From: Anaerolineae bacterium
Lineage (GTDB): Bacteria > Chloroflexota > Anaerolineae > B4-G1 > SLSP01
Reading direction: 5' to 3'
Length of the DNA stretch: 64,000 nt
Assembly (NCBI GenBank): GCA_034437215.1
Contig: DAOTVC010000079.1
Location: 17,845 to 81,844, forward strand
Shown here: in pieces, positions 5,079 through 34,894 of the stretch
Layout of the letters: every line of letters begins with the position of its first letter
Numbering within the stretch: position 1 is the first letter of the stretch
Made by a program: the position numbers and the translations under genes
Notes under the pieces: model-generated
The model's input: the letters and a program-made list of their open reading frames with translations, nothing else
The model's database searches: none
Told to the model about the DNA's origin: nothing

Positions 5079-5103
5079 GGTCCTTCCTTTTTAACTTCCC
5101 TCA

Positions 5104-12747: not shown

Positions 12748-12750
12748 GAG

Positions 12751-13144
12751 TGGAGATGGCGGGAATCGAACCCGCGTCCGAAGAATTCCTCTGTGAACAT
12801 CTACGAGCATAGTCGGCACTTTAGGTCTCGTCTGGGAGGTCGTAGCCAACCGCGCCTTTCCAGACCAGCCGAAGGATCTTAATCTATCCTATCGGCGTCG
12901 GATAGACTGCACGCTGACTGTATGTCACCCATCTCCAACACACCAGCGAGATGCCGGAGGGGCGTGACCGGTATCCCGGTCAGGTTCTCAGGCTAGATGG
13001 CGGCTGCTTACGCAGCGACGGCCACCGGGGCCCAAGTGTTTGCCATAGTGTTGGCAGTTAAATGTTTGCTCCTGGGGTCACGGGAACGGAGCATCCCGAC
13101 TCGCAGTTCACAGCCAACCTTCCCCGTCGAAACCGATCATCCCC
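12751..13144 (-). ncRNA. ssrA: tmRNA (one-piece)
   Basis: 5' GGGGATGATCGGTTTCGACGGG; 3' GGGTTCGATTCCCGCCATCTCCA; tag frame 13055..13008 = ANTMANTWAPVAVAA*. Confidence 0.96.
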
Positions 13145-17890: not shown

Positions 17891-19506
17891 GTGCGCTCCT
17901 GATGGTATGCCGGCAGTTGAACGATGAAGGTGGCGCCACCGTTGGGAGGGCTCTCTACTGTAATCGTGCCACCATGACGCTCGATGATTCCGTAACTGAT
18001 CGCCAGTCCCAGTCCCGTACCCGTAGGCTTGGTCGTGTTGAAGGGTTCGAAGAGATGCTCCCGGGCCTCCGGGGCGATGCCCGGCCCGTTGTCGCGGAAA
18101 GCGGCGATGACGCGATCATCTTCGGCGTGGTAGGCGGTCCCTACCCAGAACTGTCCACCCTTCTCCATGGCCTCGATGGCATTGATGATGATGTTGAGAA
18201 AGACCTGAGTTAGCTGGTTCTTGGAGCCCCAGACTGCGGGGATCTCGGCCTCGAAGCGGGTGACGTGGGAGATGTGGGCCTGCTGAAAGCGCTTGTTGGC
18301 GATATTGAGTGCGTCGCGGATGGCTTCGTTGATGGAGAGGGACTTGAGCAGGCCGGAGGCAGGACGGTAGAAGTCGAGCATACGACGAACGATGTGGACG
18401 AGGCGCTCGACCTCCTGTTGAGCCATCTCCAGGTAGTGCTGTCGTCGCTTCTCGTTCACATTCGGATGGGCTGCCAGGTGCATCGTATTCTGGATGGCTT
18501 GGAGCGGGTTGTTGATCTCGTGGGCAATGGAGGCTGCCAAACGCCCCACCGCAGCCATCTTCTCCGCCTGGATGAGCTGGTTCTGGGAGCGTTCCAGTGC
18601 CTCGGCAAAGGCGGTCAACTCCCCGTAAAGCCGGGCGTTCTCCACGGCCGTGGAGAGGTTAGCTGCCACGTTCTCGAGCAGTGGGAGCTGGTCGCCAGAG
18701 AGGGTGTGGGCTTCACCGATGACCACGAGCAACCCGACCGGTTCATCGTAAGTCAGCAGAGGGGTAAAGAGCAGGTCGAGGGGGCTGCTGTCCAGAGCTT
18801 CCGACCAGAAGCTCTCCACCACGGCTCTCTGTAGGACGGGTCGCCGGGTTGCAAGGGCCTCCTTGGCCGCTCCGTCCACGCTGATCACACGCCCTTCCAG
18901 CCAGGAGCCCTCCGGTGAGCGTGCATTGCGCACCATCCAGGTGTCGGTCTCTTCATCATTGAGCACGATGGCCAAAGCTTGGACGGTCAATAGGTCATTC
19001 AGCCCTTCCAGCGCCGCTTTCAGCACGCGGTCGAGTTCCAGACTGGAGGTCATGTGGTTGTTGATACGATTGAGCGCCGCTAGATCCTGATTGCGCCGGC
19101 GTAGCATCCGTTCCGTGTGGCGAATGCGCAGGACGACCTTCACTCGGGCGAGGAGCTCTTGGGCATCGAAGGGCTTGGTGATATAGTCGTCGGCTCCCAG
19201 CTGGAGCCCCCGCGTCTTATCTTGAATGTGCCCTACCGCCGTGAGGAGGATCACGGGAATCTGCTGCAACTCGGCATCGCTCTTCATCTGCTTCAGCACG
19301 TAGAAGCCATCGACCCCCGGAAGTTTCACGTCCAGCAGGACGGCGTCAAAACAACGGGCGGCTTCCGCTTCTCGACGGAGCTCTGCCAGGGCCTCCTCAC
19401 CGCTCTCGGCCACCAGGACCTCACAGGGAACGGTAGCCAGGATATCGCGGACGAGACGGATGACTTCTGGATTGTCATCAACGATCATCACTCGGGGTTG
19501 TGCCAT
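17887..19506 (-). CDS. Cytoplasmic hybrid histidine kinase (REC-GAF-HisKA-HATPase)
   Basis: IVDD, LLDVKLPG, GADDYITKP; SIAHEINNPL; N-box QVFLNIIINA, DNGPGI, GTGLGL; GAGGAG SD before 19506. Confidence 0.93.
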   Translation of the reverse strand: MAQPRVMIVDDNPEVIRLVRDILATVPCEVLVAESGEEALAELRREAEAARCFDAVLLDVKLPGVDGFYVLKQMKSDAELQQIPVILLTAVGHIQDKTRGLQLGADDYITKPFDAQELLARVKVVLRIRHTERMLRRRNQDLAALNRINNHMTSSLELDRVLKAALEGLNDLLTVQALAIVLNDEETDTWMVRNARSPEGSWLEGRVISVDGAAKEALATRRPVLQRAVVESFWSEALDSSPLDLLFTPLLTYDEPVGLLVVIGEAHTLSGDQLPLLENVAANLSTAVENARLYGELTAFAEALERSQNQLIQAEKMAAVGRLAASIAHEINNPLQAIQNTMHLAAHPNVNEKRRQHYLEMAQQEVERLVHIVRRMLDFYRPASGLLKSLSINEAIRDALNIANKRFQQAHISHVTRFEAEIPAVWGSKNQLTQVFLNIIINAIEAMEKGGQFWVGTAYHAEDDRVIAAFRDNGPGIAPEAREHLFEPFNTTKPTGTGLGLAISYGIIERHGGTITVESPPNGGATFIVQLPAYHQERT

Positions 19507-19585: not shown

Positions 19586-19614
19586 TGAACCCACGATGAC
19601 TTGCCAAGGTATAT
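19586..19614 (+). promoter_or_regulatory. Putative ECF sigma promoter
   Basis: TGAACC-N17-GTATAT; same architecture as the motif upstream of the ECF sigma gene. Confidence 0.55.
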
Positions 19615-19793
19615 ATGTTGTATTACAATAATCTCGTCTGTCTGCAGGCGGGCTATTTTGGTTCGATATATTGGTATCGCCACCTGCGGCGGCTGCGAGG
19701 TCTGGGTACAGTCAGTGAAGAAGGTAGTAGTTTCGGATAGTCAACTGGAAGGTGCTGGTAGAACCACGCAGCTGAGGCGAGATGGAGGTAGCT

Positions 19794-20042
19794 GTGGGCT
19801 CGCAGCAGATATTCTCTCAGGATATGCCTGACGATAGTTTGGAGCTGTTGATTCGCAATGTTCTGCGTGAGGGGACCTCTGCAAGAGGGCCTTCTACACA
19901 TCTATGGAGGCGCATCGTTAGCAAGGTTCGGTCACAACAGCGCGCTCGCCGATACGATTACGCCCGTCCCACATGGCAGCTTCCTTCGCAATCCATCCTG
20001 AGCGGATACTATCTTCTCACCTCACCTCTTCACGTTCTTTGA
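19794..20042 (+). CDS. Small hypothetical protein, anti-sigma N-terminus-like
   Basis: GGAGG SD + GTG; DDSLELLIRNVL...PSTHLWRRI resembles the ORF at 33153-33449. Confidence 0.6.
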   Translation: MGSQQIFSQDMPDDSLELLIRNVLREGTSARGPSTHLWRRIVSKVRSQQRARRYDYARPTWQLPSQSILSGYYLLTSPLHVL

Positions 20043-20188
20043 CTGAGAGCTTTTCAAATGTGGAAATACGTCTCTTACCTGGTATAATAGGCTTCAAGCC
20101 CTTGACAGAAGGAGGTGATGCGTAAGGAGAAGATGATCAAGTGTCCCATTTCGTAACCCTAAAAACCCAACTTTGGAGGAAGAACAAC

Positions 20189-22210
20189 ATGTTGAACAAA
20201 AAACTGTTAGTACTTACCACCCTTCTGCTGGTGGTAGGCATCCTGATCTCGGCCTGCCAGCCGGAGACCATCGTCGAGACGGTGGTCGTCACCCAGGAGG
20301 GTGAGACGGTGGTAGTCACCGCTACCCCCGACCCCGATGCTGAGGAAGGGGAAGGGGAAGAGGGCGAGGAGCCGATGGAGGGTCCCGTCGTTGGTGGTTC
20401 TGGTGATGTCTATCGCATCGCCGCGCTCTCCGACATGACCACGACCAACATCTGGAAGGCCTACGATCCCGATGCCAGCATCTGGAACTACGCCGTCTAC
20501 ATCAGCAAGTACCCCTCGGCCTACGGCCTGACGACTCACCGCTGGCAGTTTGTGCCCGCGTTGGCCGCGGACTTGCCCACCGACCTGGAAGAGGAAGGTG
20601 ATTTCTGGGTCAGCACGGTGCCGCTGAAGCAGGGCGCCATGTGGAGTGACGGTGCCGAGATCACCGCCGAGGACTGGGCCTGGACGGCCAATGTGGCCCT
20701 CACGCTGGGTCTGAGCGGTAACTGGCAGAGCTACGACGGCGCTTACCTCGACCGCATCGAGGCCGTTGATCCCTACACGGCCAAGCTCTACTACCACACC
20801 AAGCCCGGTCTGGCCCGCCACGAGTACGGCGTTCTCCAGTCCCCGATCCTTTCCAAGGCTTTCTGGGAAGGGATGGTCACGCCTCTGTTGGATCAGTACG
20901 CTGAGATCGCCGACATGGACCCCGAGAGTGAAGAGTTCCTGGCTCAGCGCGAGGAGATCATTCAGGCGCTCTACCAGCTCGACGCTGCGGGCGAGCCCTC
21001 CGGTGGTGCGTGGATCCTCGATCAGTGGGAGCCCGGTGCCTTCTCGGAGGTCGTCAAGAACGATAACTACTTCGACGAAGGTGCGACCTACACCGAGTAC
21101 GAGAACGGCGCCCTCAAGATTACCAGCGCCGATGGTGAGGAGTGGGTGGCCTACGGTGAGGCCGACGGTGAGGTAGCCTACGAGTACGTCGAGGGTCCCT
21201 GGTTCGACAGCACTCTCTTCTCCATCTACAACGCGGATGCCGCTCTGCTGGCCCTTGAGGCCGGTGAGGTGGACTTCATCCTGAACCCCAACGGTCTCAG
21301 CCGTGGTCAGGTCGACCAGGTTGCCGGCGCCGAGAATATCGACTTCACCTCCAACCCCGCCAACGGCTTCCGCTACCTGGGCTTCAACTTCGACGTGCCT
21401 CTCATGGCCGATATTGCGGTCCGCCAGGCCATCGCCTGCCAGATCGACAAGGAGTTCCTGACCCAGAACCTGATGCAGGGTGCGGCCCTCCCCGTGAACA
21501 CCATCGTTCCCGAGAGCAACGCCTACTGGTACAACGCCGATGTCCCCCTCTTCTGCGATGGCATGAATTCGCAGGAGCGCCTCGAGGAGGCCGTGCGCCT
21601 TCTCAGCGAAGCCGGCTACACCTGGGACGTAGAGCCCACCTGGATCGAGGATCGCGGTGGTTCCGCGGAGTGGGGCGAGGGCATGAGGATGCCTGACGGC
21701 ACCCCCGTTGCCGCCGTGGAGCTGTTGGCCCCCAGTGCCGGGTACGACCCCCTGCGCGCCACCGCCGGTGTCTACATCGAGCAGTGGATCAACCAGCTGG
21801 GTATTCCCACCGAGGCCAACCTGACTAACTTCAACAACATCCTGGACATCGTCTTTGGTGGCGGTGAGTGGGATATGTACATCCTGGGTTGGGGCGTGAC
21901 GGCTTACCCTGACTACGCCTGCGACTTCTTCTACAGCGGTGCGGGTTTCAACACGGGTAAATTCAACAACCCCGATTTCGACGCCATGTGCGACGAGTTC
22001 TACGCCGAGACCGATCTGGATACCGCTCAGGAACAGAGCTACGCCATTCAGGAGGTCCTGGCGACCGAACTGCCCTACATCTACCTCTTCACCACCCCCA
22101 TCTACGATGCCTGGCGTTCTGACAACGTCCTGTACCCCTTCCTCGACGTTCCCGACGGCATCGGCGCCGGTGCCTACGGCCTGAAGAGCTTCGTGCAGGC
22201 GGTTCAGTAA
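20189..22210 (+). CDS. Peptide/nickel ABC transporter substrate-binding lipoprotein (family 5)
   Basis: Lipobox LISAC, WSDG..ITAED, GAWILDQW, very acidic; GGAGG SD. Confidence 0.92.
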   Translation: MLNKKLLVLTTLLLVVGILISACQPETIVETVVVTQEGETVVVTATPDPDAEEGEGEEGEEPMEGPVVGGSGDVYRIAALSDMTTTNIWKAYDPDASIWNYAVYISKYPSAYGLTTHRWQFVPALAADLPTDLEEEGDFWVSTVPLKQGAMWSDGAEITAEDWAWTANVALTLGLSGNWQSYDGAYLDRIEAVDPYTAKLYYHTKPGLARHEYGVLQSPILSKAFWEGMVTPLLDQYAEIADMDPESEEFLAQREEIIQALYQLDAAGEPSGGAWILDQWEPGAFSEVVKNDNYFDEGATYTEYENGALKITSADGEEWVAYGEADGEVAYEYVEGPWFDSTLFSIYNADAALLALEAGEVDFILNPNGLSRGQVDQVAGAENIDFTSNPANGFRYLGFNFDVPLMADIAVRQAIACQIDKEFLTQNLMQGAALPVNTIVPESNAYWYNADVPLFCDGMNSQERLEEAVRLLSEAGYTWDVEPTWIEDRGGSAEWGEGMRMPDGTPVAAVELLAPSAGYDPLRATAGVYIEQWINQLGIPTEANLTNFNNILDIVFGGGEWDMYILGWGVTAYPDYACDFFYSGAGFNTGKFNNPDFDAMCDEFYAETDLDTAQEQSYAIQEVLATELPYIYLFTTPIYDAWRSDNVLYPFLDVPDGIGAGAYGLKSFVQAVQ

Positions 22211-22248
22211 TAGGTTAACGCGTCAGTTTTGACGCAGTGAGACAATCC

Positions 22249-22291
22249 GTGGGGGGGCTCGGAGGATTTTCCTCTTCCCCCCCACACTTTA
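22249..22291 (+). terminator. Stem-loop/terminator after the substrate-binding gene
   Basis: GTGGGGGGG...CCCCCCCAC stem followed by ACTTT. Confidence 0.6.
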
Positions 22292-22321
22292 TGCAAAAAG
22301 GAAAAAGGTAGGTGTACTAGG

Positions 22322-23497
22322 ATGGGCAAATATATCCTTAAGCGGAGTGCTCAGATCCTGCTCACACTCTTGATCTTTCAAACATTGCTCTTTCTGATTC
22401 TAACGGCGTTACCGGGCGATATTACCAACCGGCTGTTGACCAATCCGGATATCCCCCCTGAGGTGCGGGAGCGCACCCGGCAGGCTTTAGGGCTGGATCA
22501 GCCTCCCCTGGTGCAGTATGCCAGATGGTTAAGAGGACTCTTCACCGGAGATCTGGGTGTCTCTTATTCCCTGTACCCGACTCCGGTCGTGGATGTTCTC
22601 TTGCAGCGGATTCCCCGCACCCTGACACTCTTTTTCACCGCAACGCTGGTCCAGTTCACCCTCGGCTTTGCCATGGGGCGGGTGCTGGCATGGCGGCGTG
22701 GGGGCGCCTTCGAGTACGGGACGACGCTGGTGGGTGTGCTCCTCTACACCGTCTTCACCCCCTGGTTCGGGTTGATGATGATCTTCATCTTCGGGGCGCG
22801 CCTCAGGTGGCTGCCCCTGGGCAAGTTTCTCGACCCGGGCCTGTGGAGTCGCTTTACTATCGTCGGTCTGGCGGACAACGCCTCGAAAGCGAACTTCGTC
22901 TTTGGTCGCATGATCCTGACCGCCTCGATAGTGCTCGTGCTTTGGATCCTGCTGATGATCTTCACGCGCAACTTGAACGCGGTGCGGCGCCGGCAGACGC
23001 AGCTTGTGGGGACGATTCTGCTCCTTGCGGGCGGTATCGGTTACTGGGCGCTCTCTGACCTGGGGGTGTTGGCCGGAAATATTCTTACCCACATGATTCT
23101 CCCCATCGGGACCGTAACGATGGTGGGTTTCGCCGGTACCATGCTGTTGACCCGCCAGACGATGTTGGAGACCCTGCGGGAGGATTATGTCCAGACCGCG
23201 CGAGCCAAGGGTTTGTCCGAGCGGGTGGTACGGGATAAGCACGCTGCGCGCAACGCCGTGCTCCCCGTCTTCACCAGCCTCATCATCAGCCTGCCCTTTA
23301 CGTTGAGCGGGGGTATCATCACCGAGACCATCTTCTCCTGGCCCGGCATGGGTTTGTTGTTATTGGAGGCCACCGTGGCCGAGGATGTCCCGCTGGTCAT
23401 GGGCGCGCTCAGTTTCATCGGTGTACTTTCGTTATCGGCTCACCTGGTGGCCGACGTTGCCTATGCCTTCCTGGATCCCCGGATCCGGTACAGCTAG
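22322..23497 (+). CDS. OppB/DppB-type permease with extra internal TM segment
   Basis: LGLDQP..QY, GDLG.S, EDYVQTARAKGL EAA motif, ETIFSWPGMG. Confidence 0.93.
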   Translation: MGKYILKRSAQILLTLLIFQTLLFLILTALPGDITNRLLTNPDIPPEVRERTRQALGLDQPPLVQYARWLRGLFTGDLGVSYSLYPTPVVDVLLQRIPRTLTLFFTATLVQFTLGFAMGRVLAWRRGGAFEYGTTLVGVLLYTVFTPWFGLMMIFIFGARLRWLPLGKFLDPGLWSRFTIVGLADNASKANFVFGRMILTASIVLVLWILLMIFTRNLNAVRRRQTQLVGTILLLAGGIGYWALSDLGVLAGNILTHMILPIGTVTMVGFAGTMLLTRQTMLETLREDYVQTARAKGLSERVVRDKHAARNAVLPVFTSLIISLPFTLSGGIITETIFSWPGMGLLLLEATVAEDVPLVMGALSFIGVLSLSAHLVADVAYAFLDPRIRYS

Positions 23498-23511
23498 GAC
23501 TGAGGTGAATT

Positions 23512-24504
23512 ATGAGTGAAACGGTTTACTCTGGCCCGGAAGCAACCCCCTCTCTCTGGCAGATACGCTTGAAGCTCGCCTGGCGCTCCTTCAAGCGCGG
23601 GTGGGCCATGTTCAAAGAGAACCCCATTGGTCTCATTGGACTGGGGATTATCGTCTTCTTTGGCCTGATGGCCATTATGCATCCCGTTCTCATGGGGACC
23701 GTCTGGGAGCAGCGTATCTACGATCCCATCATCGGCTATGACTTCGAGATCCTCGTCCATCCCTCACCACCCAGCTGGCTGCCGCAGCCCGATAACCCCA
23801 TGCATACTCCCTCGTTGCGTCACGTTCTAGGAACGGATCCCTTGGGACGGGACGTCTTGAGCCAGCTGATGTTCAGCACCCAATCGGAGTTTGCGCTGGG
23901 TATTATGGCCGCGCTGGTCACGGTGCTCATCGCTACCACCGCCGGAGCCGTGGCTGCCTACTTCGGGGGGGTGGTCGACGTCGTTCTGATGCGCCTGGCC
24001 GACGTTATCCTGATGCTGCCCTTTATCGCCATCTTGATCGTCTTGAGCTCCATGTTCGACTTCCAGATGATCCACCTGGCGGTGGTCTACGGCCTGCTGG
24101 CAGGCTTTGGCGGCAACACCATCGTCATCAAATCCCAGGCGCTCTCCATCAAGGTGAAGACCTACATCGAGGCGGCACGCATCGCGGGGGGGAACGACTG
24201 GCACATCCTCTTCACCCACCTGGTGCCCAATCTGCTGCCCCTCTCCTTCCTGTACATGATGTTCACGGTGACCAATGCTATCTTCTCCGAGGCGGTCCTC
24301 TCCTTCTTCGGCCTGCTCAACATCCGTATGAGCTGGGGCATCATGATTCAGACGGCCCAGGCAGCCGGATACCTGCTCTCCTCGTGGAAGTACTGGTATC
24401 TGATGTTCCCCGCCGGCTTGGCTATCTCGTTGCTCTGTTCGGCCTTCTATCTCGTGGGCCGGGCCATGGATGAGGTGGTCAACCCGCGGCTACGAAAACG
24501 ATGA
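23512..24504 (+). CDS. OppC/DppC-type permease
   Basis: HVLGTDPLGRD, YIEAARIAGG, HLVPN, SWG. Confidence 0.93.
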   Translation: MSETVYSGPEATPSLWQIRLKLAWRSFKRGWAMFKENPIGLIGLGIIVFFGLMAIMHPVLMGTVWEQRIYDPIIGYDFEILVHPSPPSWLPQPDNPMHTPSLRHVLGTDPLGRDVLSQLMFSTQSEFALGIMAALVTVLIATTAGAVAAYFGGVVDVVLMRLADVILMLPFIAILIVLSSMFDFQMIHLAVVYGLLAGFGGNTIVIKSQALSIKVKTYIEAARIAGGNDWHILFTHLVPNLLPLSFLYMMFTVTNAIFSEAVLSFFGLLNIRMSWGIMIQTAQAAGYLLSSWKYWYLMFPAGLAISLLCSAFYLVGRAMDEVVNPRLRKR

Positions 24505-24512
24505 GGAAGACA

Positions 24513-25523
24513 ATGGCAGAAAAAAACATCCTTTCAGTAGAAAATCTAGTGATGCACTACTCGACGCGCAAGGGCGACGTCTCTGCCGTCGACGGCGTGA
24601 GTTTCGCCCTGCAGCAGGGACACTCGCTGGGGTTGGTCGGAGAGTCCGGTTGCGGCAAGACCTCGGTGGCCTTCTCTCTCATGCGATTGTTGCCCGAAAA
24701 CGCCCGTATCAAGGACGGGGCCATCTTCATTGATGGTCAGGATATCGTCTCGATGAACAAGGAGCAGCTACTCAACGTCCGCTGGAACCGCATCGCGATG
24801 GTCTTCCAGGCGGCGATGAACGCCATGAACCCCGTCTACCGGGTCGGGGAGCAGATCATCGAGGCGCTCGACCTGCACGTGGGGGTGATGTCGAAGGCGC
24901 AGGCCCGGGAGCGAGTGGCGCAGCTCTTTGAACTGGTGGGGTTGGACCCGGAGCTCATGGATCGTTATCCGCACGAGTTCAGCGGCGGCATGCGCCAGCG
25001 CGCGATCATCGCCATGGCTCTCTCCTGCAATCCCGACATCATCATCGCCGATGAGCCGACGACGGCGCTGGACGTTATCGTTCAGGATCGGATCCTGAAG
25101 GAGCTGAAGGGGATCCAGAAGCAGCTCGGGATGAGCATGATCTACATTTCCCACGATATCGCGGTGATCGCCGAGGTGAGCGACCACATCGGGGTGATGT
25201 ACGCGGGACGTATGGCGGAGCTGGCTGATGCTGTGGACATCTTCGAGCGTCCGCTGCATCCCTACACCTATGCGCTGATGCGGGCCTTCCCCAGCATCAT
25301 CGGTGAGAAGCACGAGCTGGTCACGCTGCCGGGTGAGCCGCCGGATCTGCTCTATCCCCCTTCCGGCTGCCGTTTCCATCCCCGCTGCCCCAATGCGACG
25401 GAGATCTGTCGCGAGCAGCAGCCCCCCTTCGAGGAGAAAGAGCCGGGTCACTTCGTGGCCTGCTGGAATCCTGTGTCTGCGGGAGCGAAGGGCAGTCTAC
25501 GAGATAAGCCGGAGGTGAAATAA
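24513..25523 (+). CDS. OppD/DppD ABC ATPase
   Basis: [37 protein letters not shown]. Confidence 0.95.
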
Positions 25524-26522
25524 ATGGTGGACAAGAACAAACCCCTGGTGCGCGTTGAGGAGCTACAGAAGTACTTCCCCGTGGGGGGGGGCTTCTTCAA
25601 GCGCAGCACCGACTTCATTCACGCCGTGGATGGTGTCTCTTTTGACATCATGCCCGGTGACTCTTTGGGATTGGTAGGCGAATCGGGCTGTGGGAAGACG
25701 ACGACGGGCAAGTTGCTCGTCCGCCTCTACGAGCCCACCGGTGGTCACATCCTGATTCAGGATGGGTCGGGAGAGCTCGAGGATATCGCGTACCGGCAGG
25801 GCAGCGGACTCAAGGCCTTCCGTAAGCAGGTGCAGATGATCTTCCAGGACCCTTATGAATCCCTTAACCCGCGGCGTACCATCTACGACACGGTAGCGGA
25901 GCCTTTGGCGGTTCAGGGCATGGGCACGGTGCCGGAGCGTGAGGAGCGCGTGGCTTCTCTTTTGGAGCGGGTGGGCCTGACGCCTGCCACGAGCTTCATG
26001 TTCCGCTTTCCCCACGAGCTCTCCGGTGGTCAGCGCCAGCGGGTCGCCATCGCGCGCGCCCTGGTCGTCGATCCCGTCTTCATCGCCGCCGACGAGCCGA
26101 CATCGATGCTCGACGTCTCCATTCGTACCGGTGTGATGAATCTGATGATGGAGTTGGCCGATGAGTTGGGGGTGAGCTATCTCTATATCACCCACGACCT
26201 GGCGGTCGCCCGCTACATGTGCCAGCGTATCGCCGTCATGTACCTGGGCAAGCTCGTGGAGCTGGCCCCGACGGAGGAGCTGCTCTCCCATCCGCTGCAC
26301 CCCTACACGCGGGCGCTCATCTCGGCGGTACCCATTCCCGATCCCCGAACCAAGCGCCAGACCATCGACATCAAGGGCGGGGTCAGTGCACCCATTAACC
26401 CCCCGTCCCTCTGTCGTTTCTACGAACGCTGTCCTTTGGGCGATGAGGTCTGTGCCAATCAGCCTCACCCGCCTCTGGAGGATAAGGGGGGGGGGCACTA
26501 CGTCGCCTGCTATCACGTCTGA
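25524..26522 (+). CDS. OppF/DppF ABC ATPase
   Basis: [36 protein letters not shown]. Confidence 0.95.
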
Positions 26523-26577
26523 TACCTCCCTGGAAGCCGCGAGAGGCACGGCTTGCGACACTTGTGCGTGCTCAAGC

Positions 26578-26614
26578 AGCGGATGGAAACACAGACGTGT
26601 TTCCATCCGCTTTG
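26578..26614 (+). terminator. Perfect 15-bp hairpin after the second ATPase gene
   Basis: AGCGGATGGAAACAC-AGAC-GTGTTTCCATCCGCT then TT. Confidence 0.7.
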
Positions 26615-26675
26615 TATAGAGAGACCCGCCCGGGAAAGGGGTGGGTCATCGTTCAGGTGTAGCCGGGAGTTGAGA

Positions 26676-28445
26676 ATGCGGAACTTATGGGGCGTTAGGT
26701 TGAAGTACGTCTTACTGCTGGCGGCGCTCTTGCTGCTCAGCGGGTGCGACGCTCGCGTGCACACGGACCGGATCTCCGATGTCTGGGGCCGGGGGCGTCT
26801 TCTGGGTAGGGCCTCCGGGGCCACGGCGGTGGGGTTGGGTCCCTTTCCCGACGGCGAGCATGTGGCGGTGGCCTGGATCGAGCGTCTGGAGGAGAGCGCC
26901 GAGGAGGCCCTCCACCTCCTGATTCTCGAGGCAGGGGGCGAGGTCGTGGTGGATGAATTCGTCGCCCCGGTCGCGCTTCCGGGTGCGGATGTCAGCCTGC
27001 TCGTCGGTGACGGGGACACTCTCCACCTGCTTTGGACGTCGGGTAGGAAGGGCGAGCGCGCCCTCTGGCACCTCCAACTGCCCGATGTCCTGGGCCTGGA
27101 TGCGGCAGCTCTGGAGGCGCTACAACCGGTAGAGATCACGCCTGCCGAGCGCTCTGTGGCGGGTTACGAAGCGGCGTGGCATCCCGACCGGGGGCTCGTC
27201 GTGCTCTGGCAGGATGCGCGGGGTGAGCTACTGCTCTGGAGAGGAGACGAGTCCGTGCTGCTCCTCGATCAGGTGCTCGCCCTGGATTTCCAACTGGACG
27301 CTGCCGGGCTGGGGCACGTCGCCTGGTCGACGCGCCTTGAAGGTGCCCGGGGAGCTATCTATCAGGCCTTCCTCGACACCGAGACCGGGTCCCTTTCGGA
27401 GCCCCGCGAGGTGATGGCCCAGGTCTTCGGCGGGCGCAACCCCTCCCTGGAGTCTGTGGGGGGGCCAACACTGATCCTCGAGGAGGGCGAGATCTACGTC
27501 AGCTGGACCCAGCTCGCCATGATGGGGAACCAGTCCCAGCAGCAGCTCTTCACCGTCGTCCTCCCCGCTTGGGGCGAGGCCGGCGAGCCCTCTCCTCCTC
27601 TCTTCGTTGGCCTCTCACCACGTTTTCCGCCCCCGCTGCAGCCCCTTGAGGGCCCCTTTCCTTATCGAGCTCTGGCGAACACCGAGGAGAACGTGATGCG
27701 CTCGACCTCCGTGGGACGTGCACCTCACGCTCTCCGGGGGCAACATGCTGAAGCGGTCGTGGCAGTCTCCGCTCTCTACCGTACCCGCAGCCGCGAGGAG
27801 TTCCAACCCACGCTCATCTATCTCCGGGATGGCGAGGTTCTGGGCTATGAGCCGGCCGTTTGGACCTCCCAACTCTCGCTCAATCCTGTTGTGCGGGCCG
27901 ATGAGGATCAGAACCTCTATCTGGCGTGGGTGGATGCGGTAGGGGGGAGTTATCGCTACCCTCTCTACTTAGCGACGACCAACCCGTCATTACAGGCTAC
28001 GTGGGATCAGCTGGTGGAGCAGGACCTGTTGGTGATCCTGGGGGACTGGCTGAATCGGATCGCGGGAGGTGTCTTTATTGGGACGTTCTTGACGATCTGG
28101 CTGATGGTCCCTCTGCCTTGGTTGATCTTCTCCCTGGCCACGGGCAGCGCCTACGGCAACCGAGCGCGGGTTGCATTTCTTGTGGGCCTCTTGATCTACT
28201 GGAGCTCCAAGTACTACCTGGGGTCGGTAGTGCTGACCTACATACCGGGCCTCTATTGGCTCTCGCCTGGCTGGGCAGGGGCGTTGGTCCATGGTCTGCC
28301 GCTGGCGATCTTGTTTGTGGCGCTGGTGCTGGTGCGACTCCTCTTTATCCGTCGCGATAGGGAGTTTGATCTGGTGCGTGTCTTTGGCACCGTTGTCATC
28401 ATCGACTGGGTGCTCTCCAATCTCGTCTATGCGATTGGTTACTGA
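26676..28445 (+). CDS. Hypothetical lipoprotein with large extracytoplasmic region and about 4-5 C-terminal TM helices
   Basis: Lipobox LLSGC after a hydrophobic stretch; hydrophobic C-terminal ~140 aa. Confidence 0.75.
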   Translation: MRNLWGVRLKYVLLLAALLLLSGCDARVHTDRISDVWGRGRLLGRASGATAVGLGPFPDGEHVAVAWIERLEESAEEALHLLILEAGGEVVVDEFVAPVALPGADVSLLVGDGDTLHLLWTSGRKGERALWHLQLPDVLGLDAAALEALQPVEITPAERSVAGYEAAWHPDRGLVVLWQDARGELLLWRGDESVLLLDQVLALDFQLDAAGLGHVAWSTRLEGARGAIYQAFLDTETGSLSEPREVMAQVFGGRNPSLESVGGPTLILEEGEIYVSWTQLAMMGNQSQQQLFTVVLPAWGEAGEPSPPLFVGLSPRFPPPLQPLEGPFPYRALANTEENVMRSTSVGRAPHALRGQHAEAVVAVSALYRTRSREEFQPTLIYLRDGEVLGYEPAVWTSQLSLNPVVRADEDQNLYLAWVDAVGGSYRYPLYLATTNPSLQATWDQLVEQDLLVILGDWLNRIAGGVFIGTFLTIWLMVPLPWLIFSLATGSAYGNRARVAFLVGLLIYWSSKYYLGSVVLTYIPGLYWLSPGWAGALVHGLPLAILFVALVLVRLLFIRRDREFDLVRVFGTVVIIDWVLSNLVYAIGY

Positions 28446-28693
28446 GGGCACTCCTGTGTGTCGGTGGGTACAGAGGGAAGGAGGTGGCCAACGGAAGCTC
28501 CATTCGAAGGACCATCGGGGAAGGGTGGTGTATCACGAGGATGGGGTCTGCATCTCGGTACTTTTCATCGAGAGAGCTTTGCTTGCGTCGACAATCCTTA
28601 GGGAGCGAGGAGGATGATCCTCGCCGGCCGTCCAGACCAGAGTGCGGCTGGTGCGGGCCATTCTGTGGGGTCCCTTTAGCAGGAGGCTATCTC

Positions 28694-29881
28694 ATGGTAC
28701 GTTATCTGCTTCGCAGAGTGTTCTCAAGCTTGATAGCACTCTTCGTCTTTCTCACCTTCATGTTCTTTGTCGTGCAAGCGATGATTCCCGGCGACTTCAC
28801 CACGCAGTTCTCTCAGGCGTTAACCGCTGAAGAGCGGGAGGAGCTGCGGTCGGAACTGGGTATCGATCAACCTCTTTTCACCCAATATGTGCGCTGGATG
28901 GGGCACCTGGTGCGGGGAGACTTGGGCCGTTCTCTGTACGGCTTTCCGGTCGTTCAACAGCTGAAGAACGTCATCCCCTATACGCTGCTCGTCTTTTTAA
29001 CCGGAACGCTACTCGCCTTTCTCCTGGGTCTGTGGTTGGGTAAGGTGGTCGCCTGGCAGGGCTCGGGAATTTTGACGGGAGCGACGGTTACGACTGCTAT
29101 CTCCCTCTACACCGCTTTCCCTCCCTGGCTGGCTTTTCTGGTGACCTACTTCTTTGCCCGGCGGTTGAATATGGCCCGCGATCCCTTCAGCTACGGCAAG
29201 CGCTTAGGTGGAGCGACGCATTGGGAGTTAGGAGTCTGGTATAATGCGCCCCTCTCACCGCAGCAAGTTGCGCTGCGGGCGGTGGTGAGTTTCATAGCGG
29301 TGGCGGCTCTGCTCTTTTTGATCGACTCCCTGATGCAGCGGCAGTGGAAACGGCGTCTACCCGTGCCGCTGGCCCTGGTGCTCTTCCTTGGAGGGGTGGT
29401 CGGTAGCTGGCACGCTTTTGGGTTTGCGCCTCTCGCTCTGGATATCATGATTGTTGCTGGCATCCCCATCATCACCTACGTCTTGCTCTCCTTCGGTGAG
29501 ACGATGTTGATCATGCGTACGAGCATGATAGACACGTTGAAGGAGGAGTACGTGCTCACCGCCCAGGCGAAGGGGTTGCCGGATCGGGTGGTGCGCAACA
29601 GGCACGCGGCTCGCAATGCGCTCCTGCCCGTTCTGAGTCGCTTTGTGGTCAGTTTCCCCTACATGCTTACCGGTCTGGTGATCATTGAGGATACCCTGGA
29701 TTGGCCCGGGATCAGCAAGGCCCTCTTCGACGCCCTCTATCAGCAGGATATGCCCGTCGTGATGGGGGCTCTGTTGCTGGTGGGGGTGCTCTCTGCCGTA
29801 GCTCGCCTTGCCCTCGACGTGGTCGCTGCGTACCTCGACCCCCGCATCCGCTTCGATGCGGCTCATTCCTGGAGGCTCTGA
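28694..29881 (+). CDS. Second OppB/DppB-type permease
   Basis: LGIDQP..QY, GDLGRS, EEYVLTAQAKGL; AGGAGG SD. Confidence 0.92.
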   Translation: MVRYLLRRVFSSLIALFVFLTFMFFVVQAMIPGDFTTQFSQALTAEEREELRSELGIDQPLFTQYVRWMGHLVRGDLGRSLYGFPVVQQLKNVIPYTLLVFLTGTLLAFLLGLWLGKVVAWQGSGILTGATVTTAISLYTAFPPWLAFLVTYFFARRLNMARDPFSYGKRLGGATHWELGVWYNAPLSPQQVALRAVVSFIAVAALLFLIDSLMQRQWKRRLPVPLALVLFLGGVVGSWHAFGFAPLALDIMIVAGIPIITYVLLSFGETMLIMRTSMIDTLKEEYVLTAQAKGLPDRVVRNRHAARNALLPVLSRFVVSFPYMLTGLVIIEDTLDWPGISKALFDALYQQDMPVVMGALLLVGVLSAVARLALDVVAAYLDPRIRFDAAHSWRL

Positions 29882-30852
29882 TGACAAGCGCAGACTTTGC
29901 AAACGAGGGCACCAGCCTTCAACGGACACCGTGGGAGCGGCGGAAGGAACGTCTGGCGGCCGGCTGGCGACAGCTCAAGGGCAACTGGCGTCTCTATGCC
30001 CAGAATCCTATGGGCATTGTCGGGGTAGCCATCGTGATCTTCTTCGGAATCCTGGCGATGTTGCATCCCCTCCTGATGGCGACCGTCTGGGAGCCGCGGA
30101 TCTTCGATCCCCTCACCGGGTATGACTTCCAGATCCTTAACCATCCGGCACCTCCTTCGGGGCGCCACCTGCTGGGTACCGACTCCCTGGGGCACGACGT
30201 GCTGAGCGTCTTGCTGGCGGCGACCACACCGGCGTTCAAGGTCGGGATTACCGCAGCCCTCACCACGGCGATCCTGGGGATGACCGTTGGAGTGGTGGCG
30301 GCCTTCTACAAGGGCCTCGTTGACATGGTCCTCCTGCACATTGCCGATGCTTTCCTGCTGCTTCCCGCACCGCTGTTCATGGTCATCGTGGGTATGCGCT
30401 TCACGGATCTGGGGCCTGTCCCCCTGGGATTGATCTATGGTGTTATCGCCGGCACCGGTGGTGCTGCTATTGTCCTCCGCTCTCAGGCTCTGGCGGTGAT
30501 AGCCAAACCCTTCATCCAGGCCGCGCGGATAGCAGGCGGGGGCAGCCGTCACATCATGTTCGTACACGTCGTGCCCCACATGCTGCCCTTGACCGCTCTC
30601 TACATGATGCTCGCTGTAACCGGGGCGGTGGTGGCCGACGCCTTCATCGCGTTCTTCGGCTTCTCGCGCACCTATCTCAACTGGGGAACGATGATCTACA
30701 ACAGTTTGGTCTACTCTTCCACGTTGGGTACGGGCGTTCAGTGGCACGTGCTTCTGCCCCCTGCGCTGGCCCTCTCCATCTTCGCCGCGGGATTCTACCT
30801 GATCGCGCGTGCTCTGCACCGGGTGGCCGATCCGCGTCTACGAGCGCGTTAG
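29881..30852 (+). CDS. Second OppC/DppC-type permease
   Basis: TGATG overlap with upstream gene; HLLGTD.LG.D, FIQAARIAGG, HVVPH; paralog of 23512-24504. Confidence 0.92.
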   Translation: MTSADFANEGTSLQRTPWERRKERLAAGWRQLKGNWRLYAQNPMGIVGVAIVIFFGILAMLHPLLMATVWEPRIFDPLTGYDFQILNHPAPPSGRHLLGTDSLGHDVLSVLLAATTPAFKVGITAALTTAILGMTVGVVAAFYKGLVDMVLLHIADAFLLLPAPLFMVIVGMRFTDLGPVPLGLIYGVIAGTGGAAIVLRSQALAVIAKPFIQAARIAGGGSRHIMFVHVVPHMLPLTALYMMLAVTGAVVADAFIAFFGFSRTYLNWGTMIYNSLVYSSTLGTGVQWHVLLPPALALSIFAAGFYLIARALHRVADPRLRAR

Positions 30853-30872
30853 GCGTTATCCTCTCAAGTGCC

Positions 30873-30904
30873 GGAGGCCGGCTGCAATACGCAAGCCGGC
30901 CTCC
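30873..30904. terminator. Hairpin between convergent permease and binding-protein genes
   Basis: GGAGGCCGGCT-N10-AGCCGGCCTCC. Confidence 0.65.
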
Positions 30905-30924
30905 TGTGCGTTGTGGCCTCAGGG

Positions 30925-32877
30925 TCAGCGCTCGAGGTCGAAGGCCTCGATGTTCCACATCTCGGAGGTCTCCGTTGCGTCCATCTCGAAGCCCAGGACG
31001 TTGATCCTCGTGGCCGCCGTCTTGAGCCGCAGGAAGAGCGGCAGTGCGGGCAGCTGCTCGGAGAAGATGCGTTGGGCTTCCAAATGGCGCTGCACGTAGG
31101 ACTCCATACCGGGCAGCGCCTGCAGGGCCGCCGTGCAGATCACGTCGTAGGTCTCGTTGCTGAATCCGGAGAAGTTGGAGCTGGACCAGTCGTTATCCTC
31201 GTCGGGTATCTCGCTCGTGAGATAGAGATCGCAGGGTGGCGGCGTGACGCTCGAGGACCAGGCAAAGGAGGCCACGTCAAAGGCGCGGCCGTAGAGGGGG
31301 CCTTCAGGCCCTTGCGCGAAGAACTCCAGAGAGGGCAGGCTCTGAGGGAAGACCTGGATGCCGCACTCCGCCAGATCCTCCTGGAAGATCTCCATGTAAC
31401 GGACGTGGAGATCTTGGTTGGTCGACTGCCAGGTGAATTCCAGCGGGGTGTTCTCCCGGATACCCTCGACACCGTGGGCCTCGCGTATCCCGTCGCCGTC
31501 CTCGTCCGTCCAGCCCAGCTCCTCCAGCAGGGTCATGCCCGCATCCGGGTCATGTCTGTAACGTCGGACGAGCTCCGCGTCGAAGAGGGGGTGTCCCGGC
31601 GGGAGGTAGCTGTCTAGCACTTGGGAGCGCCCGTAGAGGAGCTGCTCGACTGCTCCCACCCGGTCCAGGCAGTAGGCCACCGCCCGACGCATGCGGACGT
31701 CCCCAAAGAAGTCGGGCCGGTTGTAAGAGCGCGCGGTATTGATGCCGAAGTCCAGATGCTCCCAGAGGGTGTCGGTGGCGAACTCGGCGTGGAGCACACC
31801 GTGCTCGTCGAGCTCAATCAGCAGATCGGTCTGGCTGTCCAACCCCCCGTCCTGGGTGACGATATCGCACTCGCCGGCGAGCAGCTGCGTGAGGGCGACG
31901 TTCGGATCGGCGACGAAGCGGTAGATAACGGCGTCCAGCTTGGGCAAGTCCTCGTCCGAGCGGAAGTAGAGGGGATTGCGCACCACAGTGATGTGATCCC
32001 CGGCGATCCACTCCTTGATGGTGAAGGGGCCCCAGCCCAGGGGCCTGCGGGTGGACTCCTCCGCTGTGACCAAATCCCCCGCTGTGTAGCCCAGCTCCTC
32101 CTCCCAGAGGTGGCGCGGTAAGGGGTGGAAGAAGTTGAGTGCGTAGTTGTGATCCAGATACCCGGGAAGGCCCATCCAGAGGGTGCTCTGCTCATCCAGC
32201 GCCTCGTAGGACGCCGTACGCAGTGTCGTGTACTTGGCAGCCGGGGTGTCGGGATGGCTGTGCATCTCGAAGCCGTAGACGGAATCATCGGCGGTGACAG
32301 GCTCTCCATCGGACCAGCGGATTCCCTCCAGCAGGGTGAAGGTCACCTCCATCTGGTCCATCTCGACAGGTTCACCGGTGAACTCGATGGCGCACTCCGG
32401 TGAGTGGCAGCCGGTGGGGCGGAGGATGACACCCTCGGTGAGTTCCACAGGATTGTTGTTGGCATCGACGATCTCGTCTCCCTCCTGGACGATTACCGTA
32501 TCGACGATAGCGTCCCCGTCGGGAAGGCTCGGCAACTTCTCCAGGATGATGGGCTGGTAGTCGTAACCCCGGTGGTCGATGGGGCCATCATAGATGGCCT
32601 CTTGGATGTGACGGGCTGCCCTATCAGGAGTGCCCAACCAGAAGAGGGTTCGAGGTTCTTCACCCTGGCAGACCACAAGGGTCTTGGGGCCGGCCGGGGT
32701 CGGCCTCGGCGTAGGCTCTGTGGGGGTCGTAGGGGACGTCTCGGGTTCAGCCGTCGCGGTAGGAGGAGGGGAGGTGAGCGGAGGGGCAGTGGGCGGGGGG
32801 GCACAGGCGGCACTGGCCAACAGGCACAGGAACAGGAACAGGATAAGAGCGAGCGCCAATTTTCTTCTTAATACCAT
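30925..32877 (-). CDS. Second peptide ABC transporter substrate-binding lipoprotein (family 5)
   Basis: Lipobox LASAC, Pro/Thr linker, WSDGEPVTADD, GWGPF, WEHLDF, DVRMRRA. Confidence 0.92.
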   Translation of the reverse strand: MVLRRKLALALILFLFLCLLASAACAPPPTAPPLTSPPPTATAEPETSPTTPTEPTPRPTPAGPKTLVVCQGEEPRTLFWLGTPDRAARHIQEAIYDGPIDHRGYDYQPIILEKLPSLPDGDAIVDTVIVQEGDEIVDANNNPVELTEGVILRPTGCHSPECAIEFTGEPVEMDQMEVTFTLLEGIRWSDGEPVTADDSVYGFEMHSHPDTPAAKYTTLRTASYEALDEQSTLWMGLPGYLDHNYALNFFHPLPRHLWEEELGYTAGDLVTAEESTRRPLGWGPFTIKEWIAGDHITVVRNPLYFRSDEDLPKLDAVIYRFVADPNVALTQLLAGECDIVTQDGGLDSQTDLLIELDEHGVLHAEFATDTLWEHLDFGINTARSYNRPDFFGDVRMRRAVAYCLDRVGAVEQLLYGRSQVLDSYLPPGHPLFDAELVRRYRHDPDAGMTLLEELGWTDEDGDGIREAHGVEGIRENTPLEFTWQSTNQDLHVRYMEIFQEDLAECGIQVFPQSLPSLEFFAQGPEGPLYGRAFDVASFAWSSSVTPPPCDLYLTSEIPDEDNDWSSSNFSGFSNETYDVICTAALQALPGMESYVQRHLEAQRIFSEQLPALPLFLRLKTAATRINVLGFEMDATETSEMWNIEAFDLER

Positions 32878-33000
32878 CACTATTCTCTCCACTTCCGTTG
32901 ATGAAGGTTCAGTGCTCTCACCTCCCGAGCTTTCAACGTCACCACAGACGGGGAACGGTGGTTTCACCTGCGAGGTGGGTGAGAGGTTACAACGACGTGT

Positions 33001-33028
33001 ATTGTACGAAGAGGCAGAGGAAAGTCAA
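33001..33028 (-). promoter_or_regulatory. sigmaA-type promoter of the second binding-protein gene
   Basis: TTGACT-N16-TACAAT. Confidence 0.65.
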
Positions 33029-33152
33029 ATGAACTGTGAGTAGGGCACTGCATCGAGTAGGCGATCAAGCAGCAGGGCTGAGGAGCCGGCCCCTCTCCTC
33101 AGCCGGAGCAGCGATAGAATGTGCTTCCTCTGTCGGAGGATGCAGGCTCAGC

Positions 33153-33449
33153 TCAGGCTGTGATCAGCCGCATGGCGAGGATCTGCTGCGGCAGAGGGTT
33201 GATCTGGGGCAGGAGTTCCATCTGCCAGGAGAACTCCTGTTGGCCCTGAACACTGATCGCCCACGAAGCCAAGCGCGGCAGATGGAGAGCCCAGAGCCGT
33301 TCGTAGACCTTCTTCAGCGGAGACGGCGAGGACTCCAACTCTGCAACGATGCGCGGGAAGAGCTCCTCAGAGGACGTGGCGTCCCTGTAGGGCTCCAAGG
33401 CCTCCTGGAAAAGCGTATCTAGCTCGAAATCATTCTTATGTAAACTCAT
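33153..33449 (-). CDS. Small protein, putative soluble anti-sigma factor
   Basis: 14-nt overlap with ECF sigma 3' end; DFELDTLFQEAL...SSEELFPRI N-terminal helix pattern. Confidence 0.65.
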   Translation of the reverse strand: MSLHKNDFELDTLFQEALEPYRDATSSEELFPRIVAELESSPSPLKKVYERLWALHLPRLASWAISVQGQQEFSWQMELLPQINPLPQQILAMRLITA

Positions 33450-34011
33450 AGCTCATCTCGGGAACCGGGCGTTGCCGCTGCGTCAACGCCTTCCGTAAGC
33501 GCTCGCGCGCATAGTAGAGGCGTGACTTCACGGTGCCCACGGGCAGCTCCAATATGCGTCCGATCTCTTCCATCGGGAGATTTTCGAGATAGAAGAGGAC
33601 GACGACAGAACGGTGGGCAGGGGGTAGGGTGTCGATGACCTCGCGGACGAGGCGGGCCGTCTCGCGCTCCTCCGTCTTGCGATCCGGGGAGGTAAAGGGG
33701 GTCGGCAGGCCCGCAAGCCACTCCAGCACATCGTCGACGGGCTGGGTCCAGCGGCGCTGAGAGGACCAATCGTAGGCCAGGTTGAGCGTGACCCGATAGA
33801 GCCAGGGCTTCAGAGGACGCTCGCCGTCGATCGTGGCCGCGTAGGTATTGAGCCGCACGAAACACTCTTGCAGGATGTCCTCGGCGGCGTGTACGTTTCG
33901 CGTGATGGCGAGAGCGGTGCGGTACACTAAGTCCTTATACTGGGTGTAAAGCTCACCAAGAGCCTCCAGATCACCATTCTGGAGCCGCTTAACCAGTAGA
34001 CTGTCCTCCAT
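33436..34011 (-). CDS. ECF (sigma-70 group 4) RNA polymerase sigma factor
   Basis: AAEDILQE.F, WLYRVTLN, VVVLFY, EIGRILELPVGTVKSRLYYAR. Confidence 0.94.
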   Translation of the reverse strand: MEDSLLVKRLQNGDLEALGELYTQYKDLVYRTALAITRNVHAAEDILQECFVRLNTYAATIDGERPLKPWLYRVTLNLAYDWSSQRRWTQPVDDVLEWLAGLPTPFTSPDRKTEERETARLVREVIDTLPPAHRSVVVLFYLENLPMEEIGRILELPVGTVKSRLYYARERLRKALTQRQRPVPEMSYEFT

Positions 34012-34110
34012 AGTTTCATCTTCCTTCCACCTGCGAGCAGACAAGGGCCTAAGGCGTTCCTCGGGGCGGGGCAGGTAGAGGACGCGCAGGCGCCGGACCG
34101 CTCTAACAAT

Positions 34111-34139
34111 AGATACTATTCTACCCGTCGTAAGGTTCA
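34111..34139 (-). promoter_or_regulatory. Putative autoregulatory ECF promoter, overlapping a sigmaA promoter (TTGACG-N17-TAGAAT)
   Basis: TGAACC-N17-GTATCT about 100 nt upstream of the sigma start; -35 lies in the last trmD codons. Confidence 0.6.
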
Positions 34140-34894
34140 TCGTCAAGATTACTTTGTTCCAGAAGCGCCCGTTCGGCCTCTGTCAGTGTCGCTCCATCCA
34201 GCAGGTCTGGGCGACGCTGCCGGGTGCGTTGGAGGGCTTGCCGGCGCTTCCACCGGGCGATGGCGGCGTGATTCCCCGAGCGGAGGACCTCCGGAACCTC
34301 CCAGTCCCGAAAGCCGGCGGGTCGCGTGTATTGGGGCCCCTCGAGCAGGCCCCGCGCGTGAGAGTCTTGACGGGCACTCTCCTCGTCGCCCAACACGCCG
34401 GGCAGCCAGCGGACCACGGCATCGATGACCACCATCGCCGCCAGCTCCCCTCCTGTGAGGACGTAGTCCCCGATGGAGATCTCGTCGGTGACCAGGTGCT
34501 CGCGAATGCGCTCGTCGAAGCCCTCGTAGTGACCGCAGATCAGAATCAGCCGGGGATGGCTACCGATTGCCCGTACCCCCTCTTGATCCAGAGGGCGACC
34601 TTGAGGACTGAGGAGGATGATGGGCGTGGACGCAGCCGGCGACAGCCTCTCAACAGCTCGGAAGACCGGCTCCGGCTTCATCACCATGCCCACACCCCCT
34701 CCATAGGGCACGTCGTCGGTCATCTGGTGGCGGTCAAAGGCGTAATCACGCAGCTGGTGGAGGTAGATGGTGACCAGGCCACGCTGCTGAGCCCGCCCCA
34801 GGATGCTCTCCTGAAGTGGGCTCAGAAACATTTCGGGGAACAGGGTCACGACATCAAAACGCATTATTTCTATCTTAGCTCCTCGGCGCCCCAT
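34121..34894 (-). CDS. trmD: tRNA (guanine-N1)-methyltransferase TrmD
   Basis: [48 protein letters not shown]. Confidence 0.98.

Follow-up and report, generated by a model that had tools for sequence, protein, structure and literature searches.

A candidate autoregulated extracytoplasmic function (ECF) sigma factor module with a coupled and an orphan member of an undescribed small-protein family in an uncultured Anaerolineae bacterium

ECF sigma factors are one of the main routes by which bacteria transduce signals, but what is known of their regulators comes largely from cases that look like described anti-sigma domains. What, then, holds such a factor in check when its neighbours resemble none of them? 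The question is raised by a 64-kb stretch of an Anaerolineae genome (assembly GCA_034437215.1, contig DAOTVC010000079.1, positions 17,845 to 81,844 of the forward strand), referred to below as the window. Here an ECF sigma gene overlaps a small open reading frame (ORF) of 98 amino acids (aa), a second small ORF, the orphan, stands 14 kb away from it, and each of the two lies upstream of, and co-oriented with, a gene for an SBP_bac_5 lipoprotein (substrate-binding proteins SBP1 and SBP2), giving a mirror-image layout. A sequence-only reading had taken the small proteins for a twin pair of soluble anti-sigma factors sharing one promoter motif; the coordinates, genes and motif positions that it gave (Table 1) are all present in the sequence, as are the mirror-image layout and the overlap with the sigma gene. 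We consider it moderately probable that an uncultured Anaerolineae-type member of the Chloroflexota has here an autoregulated ECF sigma module, with two copies of a partner from a new family.

The sigma gene product is matched in Pfam by Sigma70_r2 (2.4e-13) and Sigma70_r4/r4_2 (1e-13), and no Pfam match to a sigma-3 (r3) domain was obtained, so that with its 191 aa it has the make-up of an ECF (group 4) sigma factor; the NCBIfam model TIGR02937 (sigma70-ECF) gives 108 bits against a cut-off of 42.9. Its best curated matches in NCBIfam are SigW models, of which the equivalog models NF007223 and TIGR02948 stay below cut-off (123 bits vs 209 and 119 vs 243, respectively). By these scores the factor is SigW-like and is no SigW orthologue. 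The main text of the ECF classification paper does not mention Chloroflexi (PMC7826278). A metagenome scan with the sigma factor yielded 80 orthologous loci (46-96% identity); related loci belong to metagenome-assembled genomes of Anaerolineae, Thermoflexales, and other Chloroflexota, and sequence of the same bacterium is also found in assembly GCA_046541445.1. The gene trmD is directly upstream of sigma in 39 of 55 loci. A C-terminal tail beyond region 4, RQRPVPEM.YEFT, is common to the sigma orthologues (loci L014-L093; window 33436-33475, minus strand).

The sigma factor appears to drive its own gene. The motif TGAACC-N17-GTAT[A/C]T has exactly two matches in the window, one upstream of sigma (34139-34111, minus strand) and one upstream of the orphan (19586-19614, plus strand), against 0.01 expected by chance, and allowing one mismatch adds matches at chance level only; no third site had been noticed in the sequence-only reading, and there is none. 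As it also remarked, the sigma-proximal -35 box sits in the final codons of trmD. It had named the lack of the motif upstream of orthologous sigma genes as a ground for giving up the idea. Of the metagenome loci, 69 reach 120 nucleotides (nt) or more upstream of sigma, and 52 of these show a full match (10/10, spacer 17 nt) 50-100 nt before the sigma start, at 46-96% sigma identity; loci L001-L004 also carry the motif, several further loci have a 9/10 match, and it is not in the subgroup L061, L067, L077, L083, L091, nor in L062. Both strands of 502 kb of fetched sequence plus the window contain 60 exact matches, 57 of them upstream of a sigma orthologue and the remaining three upstream of orphan small ORFs (window, L008, L016). 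When 50 distinct promoter regions are aligned, little information is seen in spacer and flanks, and the motif is present also in loci without trmD upstream of sigma. Because spacer and flanks vary, the two boxes are under a constraint of their own and not kept merely via the overlap with the end of trmD. Boxes conserved at fixed spacing upstream of sigma across orthologues are the pattern of an autoregulated ECF promoter, and TGAACC-N17-GTAT is very likely the sigma factor's own.

The small ORF behind the sigma gene belongs to a family that accompanies it closely. A family ORF adjoins sigma in 66 of the 69 loci with enough downstream sequence; its start overlaps the sigma stop in 56 of 65 (offset -13 in 46 loci, as in the window, where the ATG precedes the end of the sigma stop codon by 13 nt; -16 or -3 in 10 more). 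A start that overlaps the sigma stop is a hallmark arrangement of sigma/anti-sigma pairs, and by adjacency and overlap the family is co-encoded as an anti-sigma class would be. The 98-aa ORF has a G+C content at third codon positions (GC3) of 0.77, typical of coding sequence, and one close database homologue (68% identity), whose gene order is the same: amidohydrolase, trmD, sigma, small ORF, SBP5. In the NCBI record it is called as 81 aa from a downstream TTG, losing the conserved N-terminal helix; in the Logan assembly it has 98 aa.

The family N-terminus reads M-[SN]-S-x3-D-x2-L-D-x-L-[FIL]-R-x-A-L...P-[PS]-x3-W-x-R-[IV], where the M-[SN]-S-[RH] start is conserved because the last codons of the sigma tail overlap the start of the small ORF. 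The middle is variable and the C-terminal tail conserved, commonly ..PSPF.GVMVKQMLDLRLAS, with the variants ..QMLDLRLAS, ..IFDPRLAP, and ..ILAMRLITA (window 33153-33215, minus strand; 19980-20042, plus strand). AlphaFold2 (AF2) predicts two helices in the 98-aa protein, residues 3-21 and 30-40, at a predicted local distance difference test score (pLDDT) of 86-95, with lower confidence beyond. An Asp and a Leu are almost invariant in helix 1, and helix 2 usually has an aromatic residue (W/F). Class I and II anti-sigma domains share a dual sigma-4/sigma-2 interface, and since these residues recall its contacts (PMC7406223), they may be regarded as an anti-sigma-like feature. A clear transmembrane (TM) helix with a positively charged N-side follows the N-terminal module in 7 of 89 distinct members, with about seven more borderline; the remaining members, both window proteins included, have no TM helix.

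Neither the two window proteins nor 60 family members have a match in Pfam, and NCBIfam gave no meaningful match for the small proteins; a sequence search of the PDB with the family gave nothing better than E = 0.4, the listed matches looking like chance, and Foldseek found no structure match for the small protein in the PDB. A word-seeded search with the 60-member alignment returned six matches at a database-wide E <= 1e-3, all unnamed or 'hypothetical', and a profile search of 1.84 billion representatives returned 33 proteins at E <= 1e-3, their short length keeping this number down; where members are named in the source records, the name is 'hypothetical protein'. Judged by these searches, the family is undescribed.

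Is the orphan a member of it? The ORF lies in the 682-nt gap between a hybrid kinase gene and SBP1 and has three possible starts, ATG 19782, GTG 19794 (the best Shine-Dalgarno sequence, GGAGG), and ATG 19824. A family profile was built from 40 sigma-adjacent ORFs of metagenome loci only, window proteins and orphans excluded, and was searched against 2731 six-frame segments from the window and seven loci carrying SBP1 orthologues. It matched the window 98-aa ORF (E = 1e-15); a small ORF directly upstream of the SBP1 orthologue in L008 (E = 2.6e-9); one at the same position in L009 (E = 8.9e-8); the window orphan (E = 4.4e-5); and one at the same position in L010 (E = 0.28); noise starts with the best unrelated segment at E = 0.72. 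The absence of profile-level similarity between the two small ORFs had been set beforehand as a reason to abandon the pairing, and the similarity is there. The direct comparison of orphan and 98-aa protein is weak (BLASTP E = 0.013; hhalign probability 12%), so that their homology is established by the family profile only, the pairwise comparisons being too weak to decide. A C-terminal motif, LSGYYL, is common to the orphan and TM-type members, and AF2 again predicts two N-terminal helices (pLDDT about 83-88); because of the profile match, the motif, and the same two-helix N-terminus, the orphan is best regarded as a diverged family member. Shared ancestry of the two small ORFs therefore stands; their closeness as twins does not, since the orphan falls among other orphans and the partners of more remote sigma subgroups. 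That the promoter and family relationships hold is, in our judgement, highly probable.

In L008, TGAACC-N17-GTATAT (3091-3117) stands about 160 nt upstream of the orphan, as in the window. Apart from the promoter boxes, the leader of the window orphan, of about 165 nt, shows no conservation with L008; it contains a terminator-like hairpin (19633-19652, plus strand), followed by TATTTTGG, about 15-35 nt downstream of the predicted transcription start. A riboswitch or other known RNA was considered for so long a leader, and Rfam gave none at gathering thresholds. The orphan region is identical in other public assemblies.

Natural variants of the locus indicate what the motif belongs to. The sigma factor of L016 (71% identical to that of the window) has no coupled small ORF and a degenerate motif only; the family member of this locus, of 84 aa, lies 2.5 kb away on the other strand, convergent, with a perfect motif 23 nt upstream (7122-7096, minus strand; region 3880-7125). 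Loci L050 and L081 have neither a coupled ORF nor a motif upstream of sigma, and in L050 (3990-4620) sigma abuts trmD (TAA-N3-ATG) without motif or small ORF. The three loci without a coupled ORF are thus also without the sigma motif (40/14/0/3, Fisher p = 0.023, uncorrected for relatedness). Because the small ORF of L016 has been relocated with its motif, and L050 and L081 lack both, the motif follows the small ORF in whichever transcription unit it stands. In L007, L012, and L013 the SBP1 orthologue stands without an orphan and also without the motif, which argues that the motif tracks the small ORF and not the transporter.

Translational coupling, the single-pass layout of the TM-type members, the two-helix N-terminal module, and the co-loss of motif and coupled ORF together lead us to favour, with moderate confidence, a function of the small proteins as anti-sigma factors. 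Described systems resemble the locus in part. As in SigW-RsiW of Bacillus subtilis, an autoregulated sigma gene is followed by its partner gene, and TGAACC/(N)GTAT resembles, in the same register, the -35 (TGAAAC) and -10 (CGTA) boxes of the SigW promoter consensus (PMC5758882). RsiW is a zinc-binding single-pass membrane class I anti-sigma factor that regulated intramembrane proteolysis sets free; its counterpart here is without cysteine, is unmatched in Pfam, and has no TM segment in this genome. Soluble zinc-binding anti-sigma (ZAS) factors of the RsrA, RshA, and ChrR type are likewise cytoplasmic and encoded beside an autoregulated ECF sigma gene, but they sense via an HxxxCxxC zinc site, whereas neither window protein has a cysteine; no Pfam hit of the class I/ZAS type (zf-HC2) was obtained in the window proteins or in 60 members. 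The terms TM-less and non-ZAS, used for the pair in the sequence-only reading, are accurate for both proteins.

With the class II pair CnrH-CnrY the window proteins would share a short two-helix N-terminal module, which AF2 predicts in both and which contacts sigma-4 and sigma-2 in CnrY (PMC7406223), and a minority of family members are single-pass membrane proteins, as is CnrY. Unlike CnrY, which acts with the periplasmic sensor CnrX, the family has no CnrX counterpart that could be seen here, most of its members are soluble with a conserved C-terminal tail, and sequence similarity is not demonstrated; as to a CnrY-like domain, two helices are confidently predicted and the Asp/Leu and the aromatic residue are conserved, but Foldseek gave no match in the PDB. 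The EcfG-NepR-PhyR systems, including RpoE2 of Sinorhizobium meliloti, have small soluble helical anti-sigma factors without a zinc motif, and in S. meliloti one ECF sigma factor has a cognate, linked (RsiA1) and an unlinked, 'orphan' (RsiA2) soluble anti-sigma paralogue (PMC6180224). They differ in phylum, ECF group, and promoter motif, and no sequence similarity to them was detected; the small proteins have no Pfam match of the NepR kind, and nothing resembling PhyR is encoded in the region (the one match to PhyR_sigma2 is a weak one to the sigma factor itself, E = 0.039).

In the circuit that we propose, the sigma factor would transcribe its own operon and the orphan gene from the TGAACC-N17-GTAT promoters, and the two N-terminal helices of the small proteins would clamp sigma-4 and sigma-2 in a class II CnrY-like or NepR-like manner. 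Sigma activity would thereby induce two inhibitors, one through coupled translation in step with sigma and one made separately, which would give negative feedback and buffer noise. Lacking both a TM segment and any zinc or redox motif, the small proteins would have to let go of the sigma factor through proteolysis or a partner switch, and the conserved C-terminal tail (..LRLAS, ..RLITA) may be a degron. Transcription may also read through into the binding-protein and peptide-transporter genes that lie downstream of each small ORF, which is the weakest step. A bolder version, in which the family would be a new, mostly soluble class of ECF anti-sigma factors, its tail a regulated degron or sensor inherited from membrane-anchored ancestors in which it faced outward, the sigma-induced orphan a separately tunable, threshold-setting sponge, and the circuit one that controls or answers peptide import in Anaerolineae, is a long shot.

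A number of observations weigh against the proposed circuit, and they are set out here with the explanations that compete with it. The orphan has a GC3 of 0.53 vs 0.73-0.84 in all neighbouring genes (local GC about 0.51-0.53), is missing from the gene calls of every public assembly examined, has the weakest profile score among the motif-bearing orphans, and is separated from SBP1 by no terminator-like site (none found between 20042 and 20189), as would be expected if it were a decaying relic, or untranslated, and its ECF promoter mainly served the SBP1-opp operon, or nothing. The word-seeded database search with the orphan returned no homologue, and the orphans of L009 and L010 are without the motif. 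Against a relic speak the intact ORF, in which the N-terminal motif and the C-terminal LSGYYL are kept, the confident two-helix module, the orphans of L008 and L016, which have normal GC3 and the same promoter, and the orphan-less SBP1 loci, which are motif-less too. We hold this explanation to be unlikely, without being negligible.

It is also unlikely that the small proteins are sigma-dependent products with another role (a co-factor, an activator, or a stress effector), so that the promoter and family relationships would stand without any anti-sigma feedback. Such a role would agree with the lack of similarity to any known anti-sigma family in the searches made (Pfam, PDB, Foldseek), with the solubility of most members and the lack of an obvious sensory module, and with the caution of the ECF classification authors that conserved neighbours are not guaranteed to be anti-sigma factors (PMC7826278). 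It would leave unexplained why the small-ORF start overlaps the sigma stop in most loci, why the TM-type members have the classic single-pass anti-sigma layout, why the two-helix N-terminus keeps an Asp and an aromatic residue, and why loci without a coupled ORF are also without the autoregulatory motif. The tail is predicted outside the cell in the TM members and inside in the soluble majority. No one simple role explains these opposite sides, which is a difficulty for our own proposal.

The nearest relatives of the orphan are other orphans and partners of distant sigma subgroups, not the cognate 98-aa protein, and it might for this reason serve another sigma factor. Orphan and promoter would then belong to a second, paralogous ECF sigma factor elsewhere that uses the same TGAACC-N17-GTAT element, and not to the sigma factor encoded at 34011-33436; in keeping with this, the subgroups concerned, only 47-51% identical to the window sigma, have the same promoter boxes. 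No second sigma factor of this kind is encoded within the 64-kb window, however, the L016 sigma (71% identical) has an orphan-type protein behind a perfect motif as its only nearby family member, and an identical promoter would be read by the window sigma anyway. We rate this explanation as distinctly unlikely.

Both ECF motifs are overlapped by sigmaA-like hexamers, TTGACG-17-TAGAAT at 34146-34118 (minus strand) and TTGCCA-17-TACAAT at 19601-19629 (plus strand), each pair matching 10 of 12 consensus positions, and these could be the real promoters, the shared TGAACC...GTAT being coincidental. This was rejected, as the hexamers are not conserved in orthologous loci, where TGAACC and GTAT are invariant: the positions of the first pair in the motif alignment (-7 to -2 and +16 to +21) carry little information, and the second pair is not in the aligned L008 region. 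With the low chance expectation of the shared motif added, coincidence is very improbable. That the small ORFs are precursors of secreted signal peptides, an alternative raised in the sequence-only reading on account of their small size and their position beside peptide-binding protein genes, is hardly credible, as neither has an N-terminal hydrophobic segment (maximum 19-residue hydropathy 0.64 and 0.57) or a leader-type motif, and conservation falls on an N-terminal helical module, coupled to the sigma gene.

The genes between the two small ORFs include a complete set of the Opp/Dpp type (SBP_bac_5; two BPD_transp_1 permeases; two ABC_tran ATPases with an oligo_HPY C-terminus); one more SBP_bac_5 gene and another permease pair accompany it. 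An SBP2 (SBP5) orthologue follows sigma in 13 of 40 loci, often behind an ATP-binding cassette (ABC)-ATPase-like gene, which in L040-type loci encodes 235 aa and stands between the small ORF and the SBP5 gene (L040 4857-5564); an orphan precedes three of six SBP1 orthologues (L008, L009, L010). Read-through from the ECF promoters into SBP2 and the SBP1-opp genes is possible; no terminator-like site was found in 32800-34250. Both binding-protein genes are preceded by sigmaA-like hexamer pairs of their own, as had been cautioned, at 20061-20088 (plus strand, with an extended -10) for SBP1 and at 33028-33001 (minus strand) for SBP2. A functional link of the circuit to peptide import is doubtful, the tie being one of gene order, which is a further point against the fuller reading of the locus. 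Duplication of a module of small ORF and SBP was considered as the origin of the mirror-image layout and was rejected on account of the 20% identity of SBP1 and SBP2 and by the orphan not being close to the cognate protein.

Divergent from the orphan promoter region lies the hybrid sensor gene, whose real start is 19506 (public calls give 539 aa). Other genes stand upstream of the orphans elsewhere, one for a GAF-domain-like protein in L008 and one for the C-terminal part of a histidine kinase in L009 (both judged by eye). The 630-aa ORF between the transporter gene sets has no Pfam or NCBIfam match, and its C-terminal third is hydrophobic. With Rfam at gathering thresholds, nothing was found in the whole window beyond a tmRNA gene (12748-13144, minus strand, 155 bits) and a 6S RNA gene (55862-56035, minus strand, 66 bits).

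Table 1 Features of the locus in window coordinates. TSS, transcription start site.
Feature	Position	Strand	Remarks
ECF sigma gene	34011..33436	-	191 aa; Pfam Sigma70_r2 + Sigma70_r4
98-aa small ORF, sigma-coupled	33449..33153	-	putative cognate anti-sigma factor; soluble, no Cys
Orphan small ORF	19782/19794..20042	+	family profile; 86 aa (ATG 19782) or 82 aa (GTG 19794)
ECF-type promoter, sigma operon	34139-34111	-	-35 TGAACC 34139-34134; -10 GTAT 34116-34113; spacer 17 nt; expected TSS ~34106
ECF-type promoter, orphan	19586-19614	+	-35 TGAACC 19586-19591; -10 GTAT 19609-19612; expected TSS ~19619
SBP1, SBP_bac_5 gene	20189..22210	+	Pfam; lipoprotein-type signal peptide; downstream of orphan
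oppB, oppC, oppD, oppF-type genes	22322..26522	+	Pfam and public gene calls; after SBP1
630-aa ORF (589 aa in public calls)	26553-28445	+	between oppF and second oppB/oppC pair
Second ABC permease pair, oppB/oppC-like	28694..30852	+	Pfam BPD_transp_1; convergent with SBP2
SBP2, SBP_bac_5 gene	32877..30925	-	Pfam; lipoprotein-type signal peptide; downstream of sigma operon
trmD	34894..34121	-	directly upstream of sigma gene
Amidohydrolase gene	beyond trmD	-	upstream of trmD
Hybrid response-regulator/GAF/histidine-kinase gene	17887-19506	-	receiver (N-terminal), GAF, HisKA, HATPase

The principle of the circuit is not new, as there are precedents for each of its elements, the autoregulated ECF module, the two-helix anti-sigma domain, and the orphan anti-sigma paralogue; new are the small-protein family and a defined promoter motif for a Chloroflexota ECF group, in a familiar circuit. 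Those who drew up the ECF classification consider it probable that there are more soluble variants of anti-sigma factors, which similarity cannot reveal (PMC7826278), and the present locus offers a candidate for such a similarity-invisible anti-sigma factor, from a poorly studied phylum. What is gained is a sequence family and a promoter motif that can be used for regulon prediction in Chloroflexota. The natural variants (coupled, orphan, membrane-anchored, absent) make the logic of the circuit testable, and sets of sigma factor, anti-sigma factor, and promoter that do not cross-react with those of a host would be useful parts for synthetic circuits.

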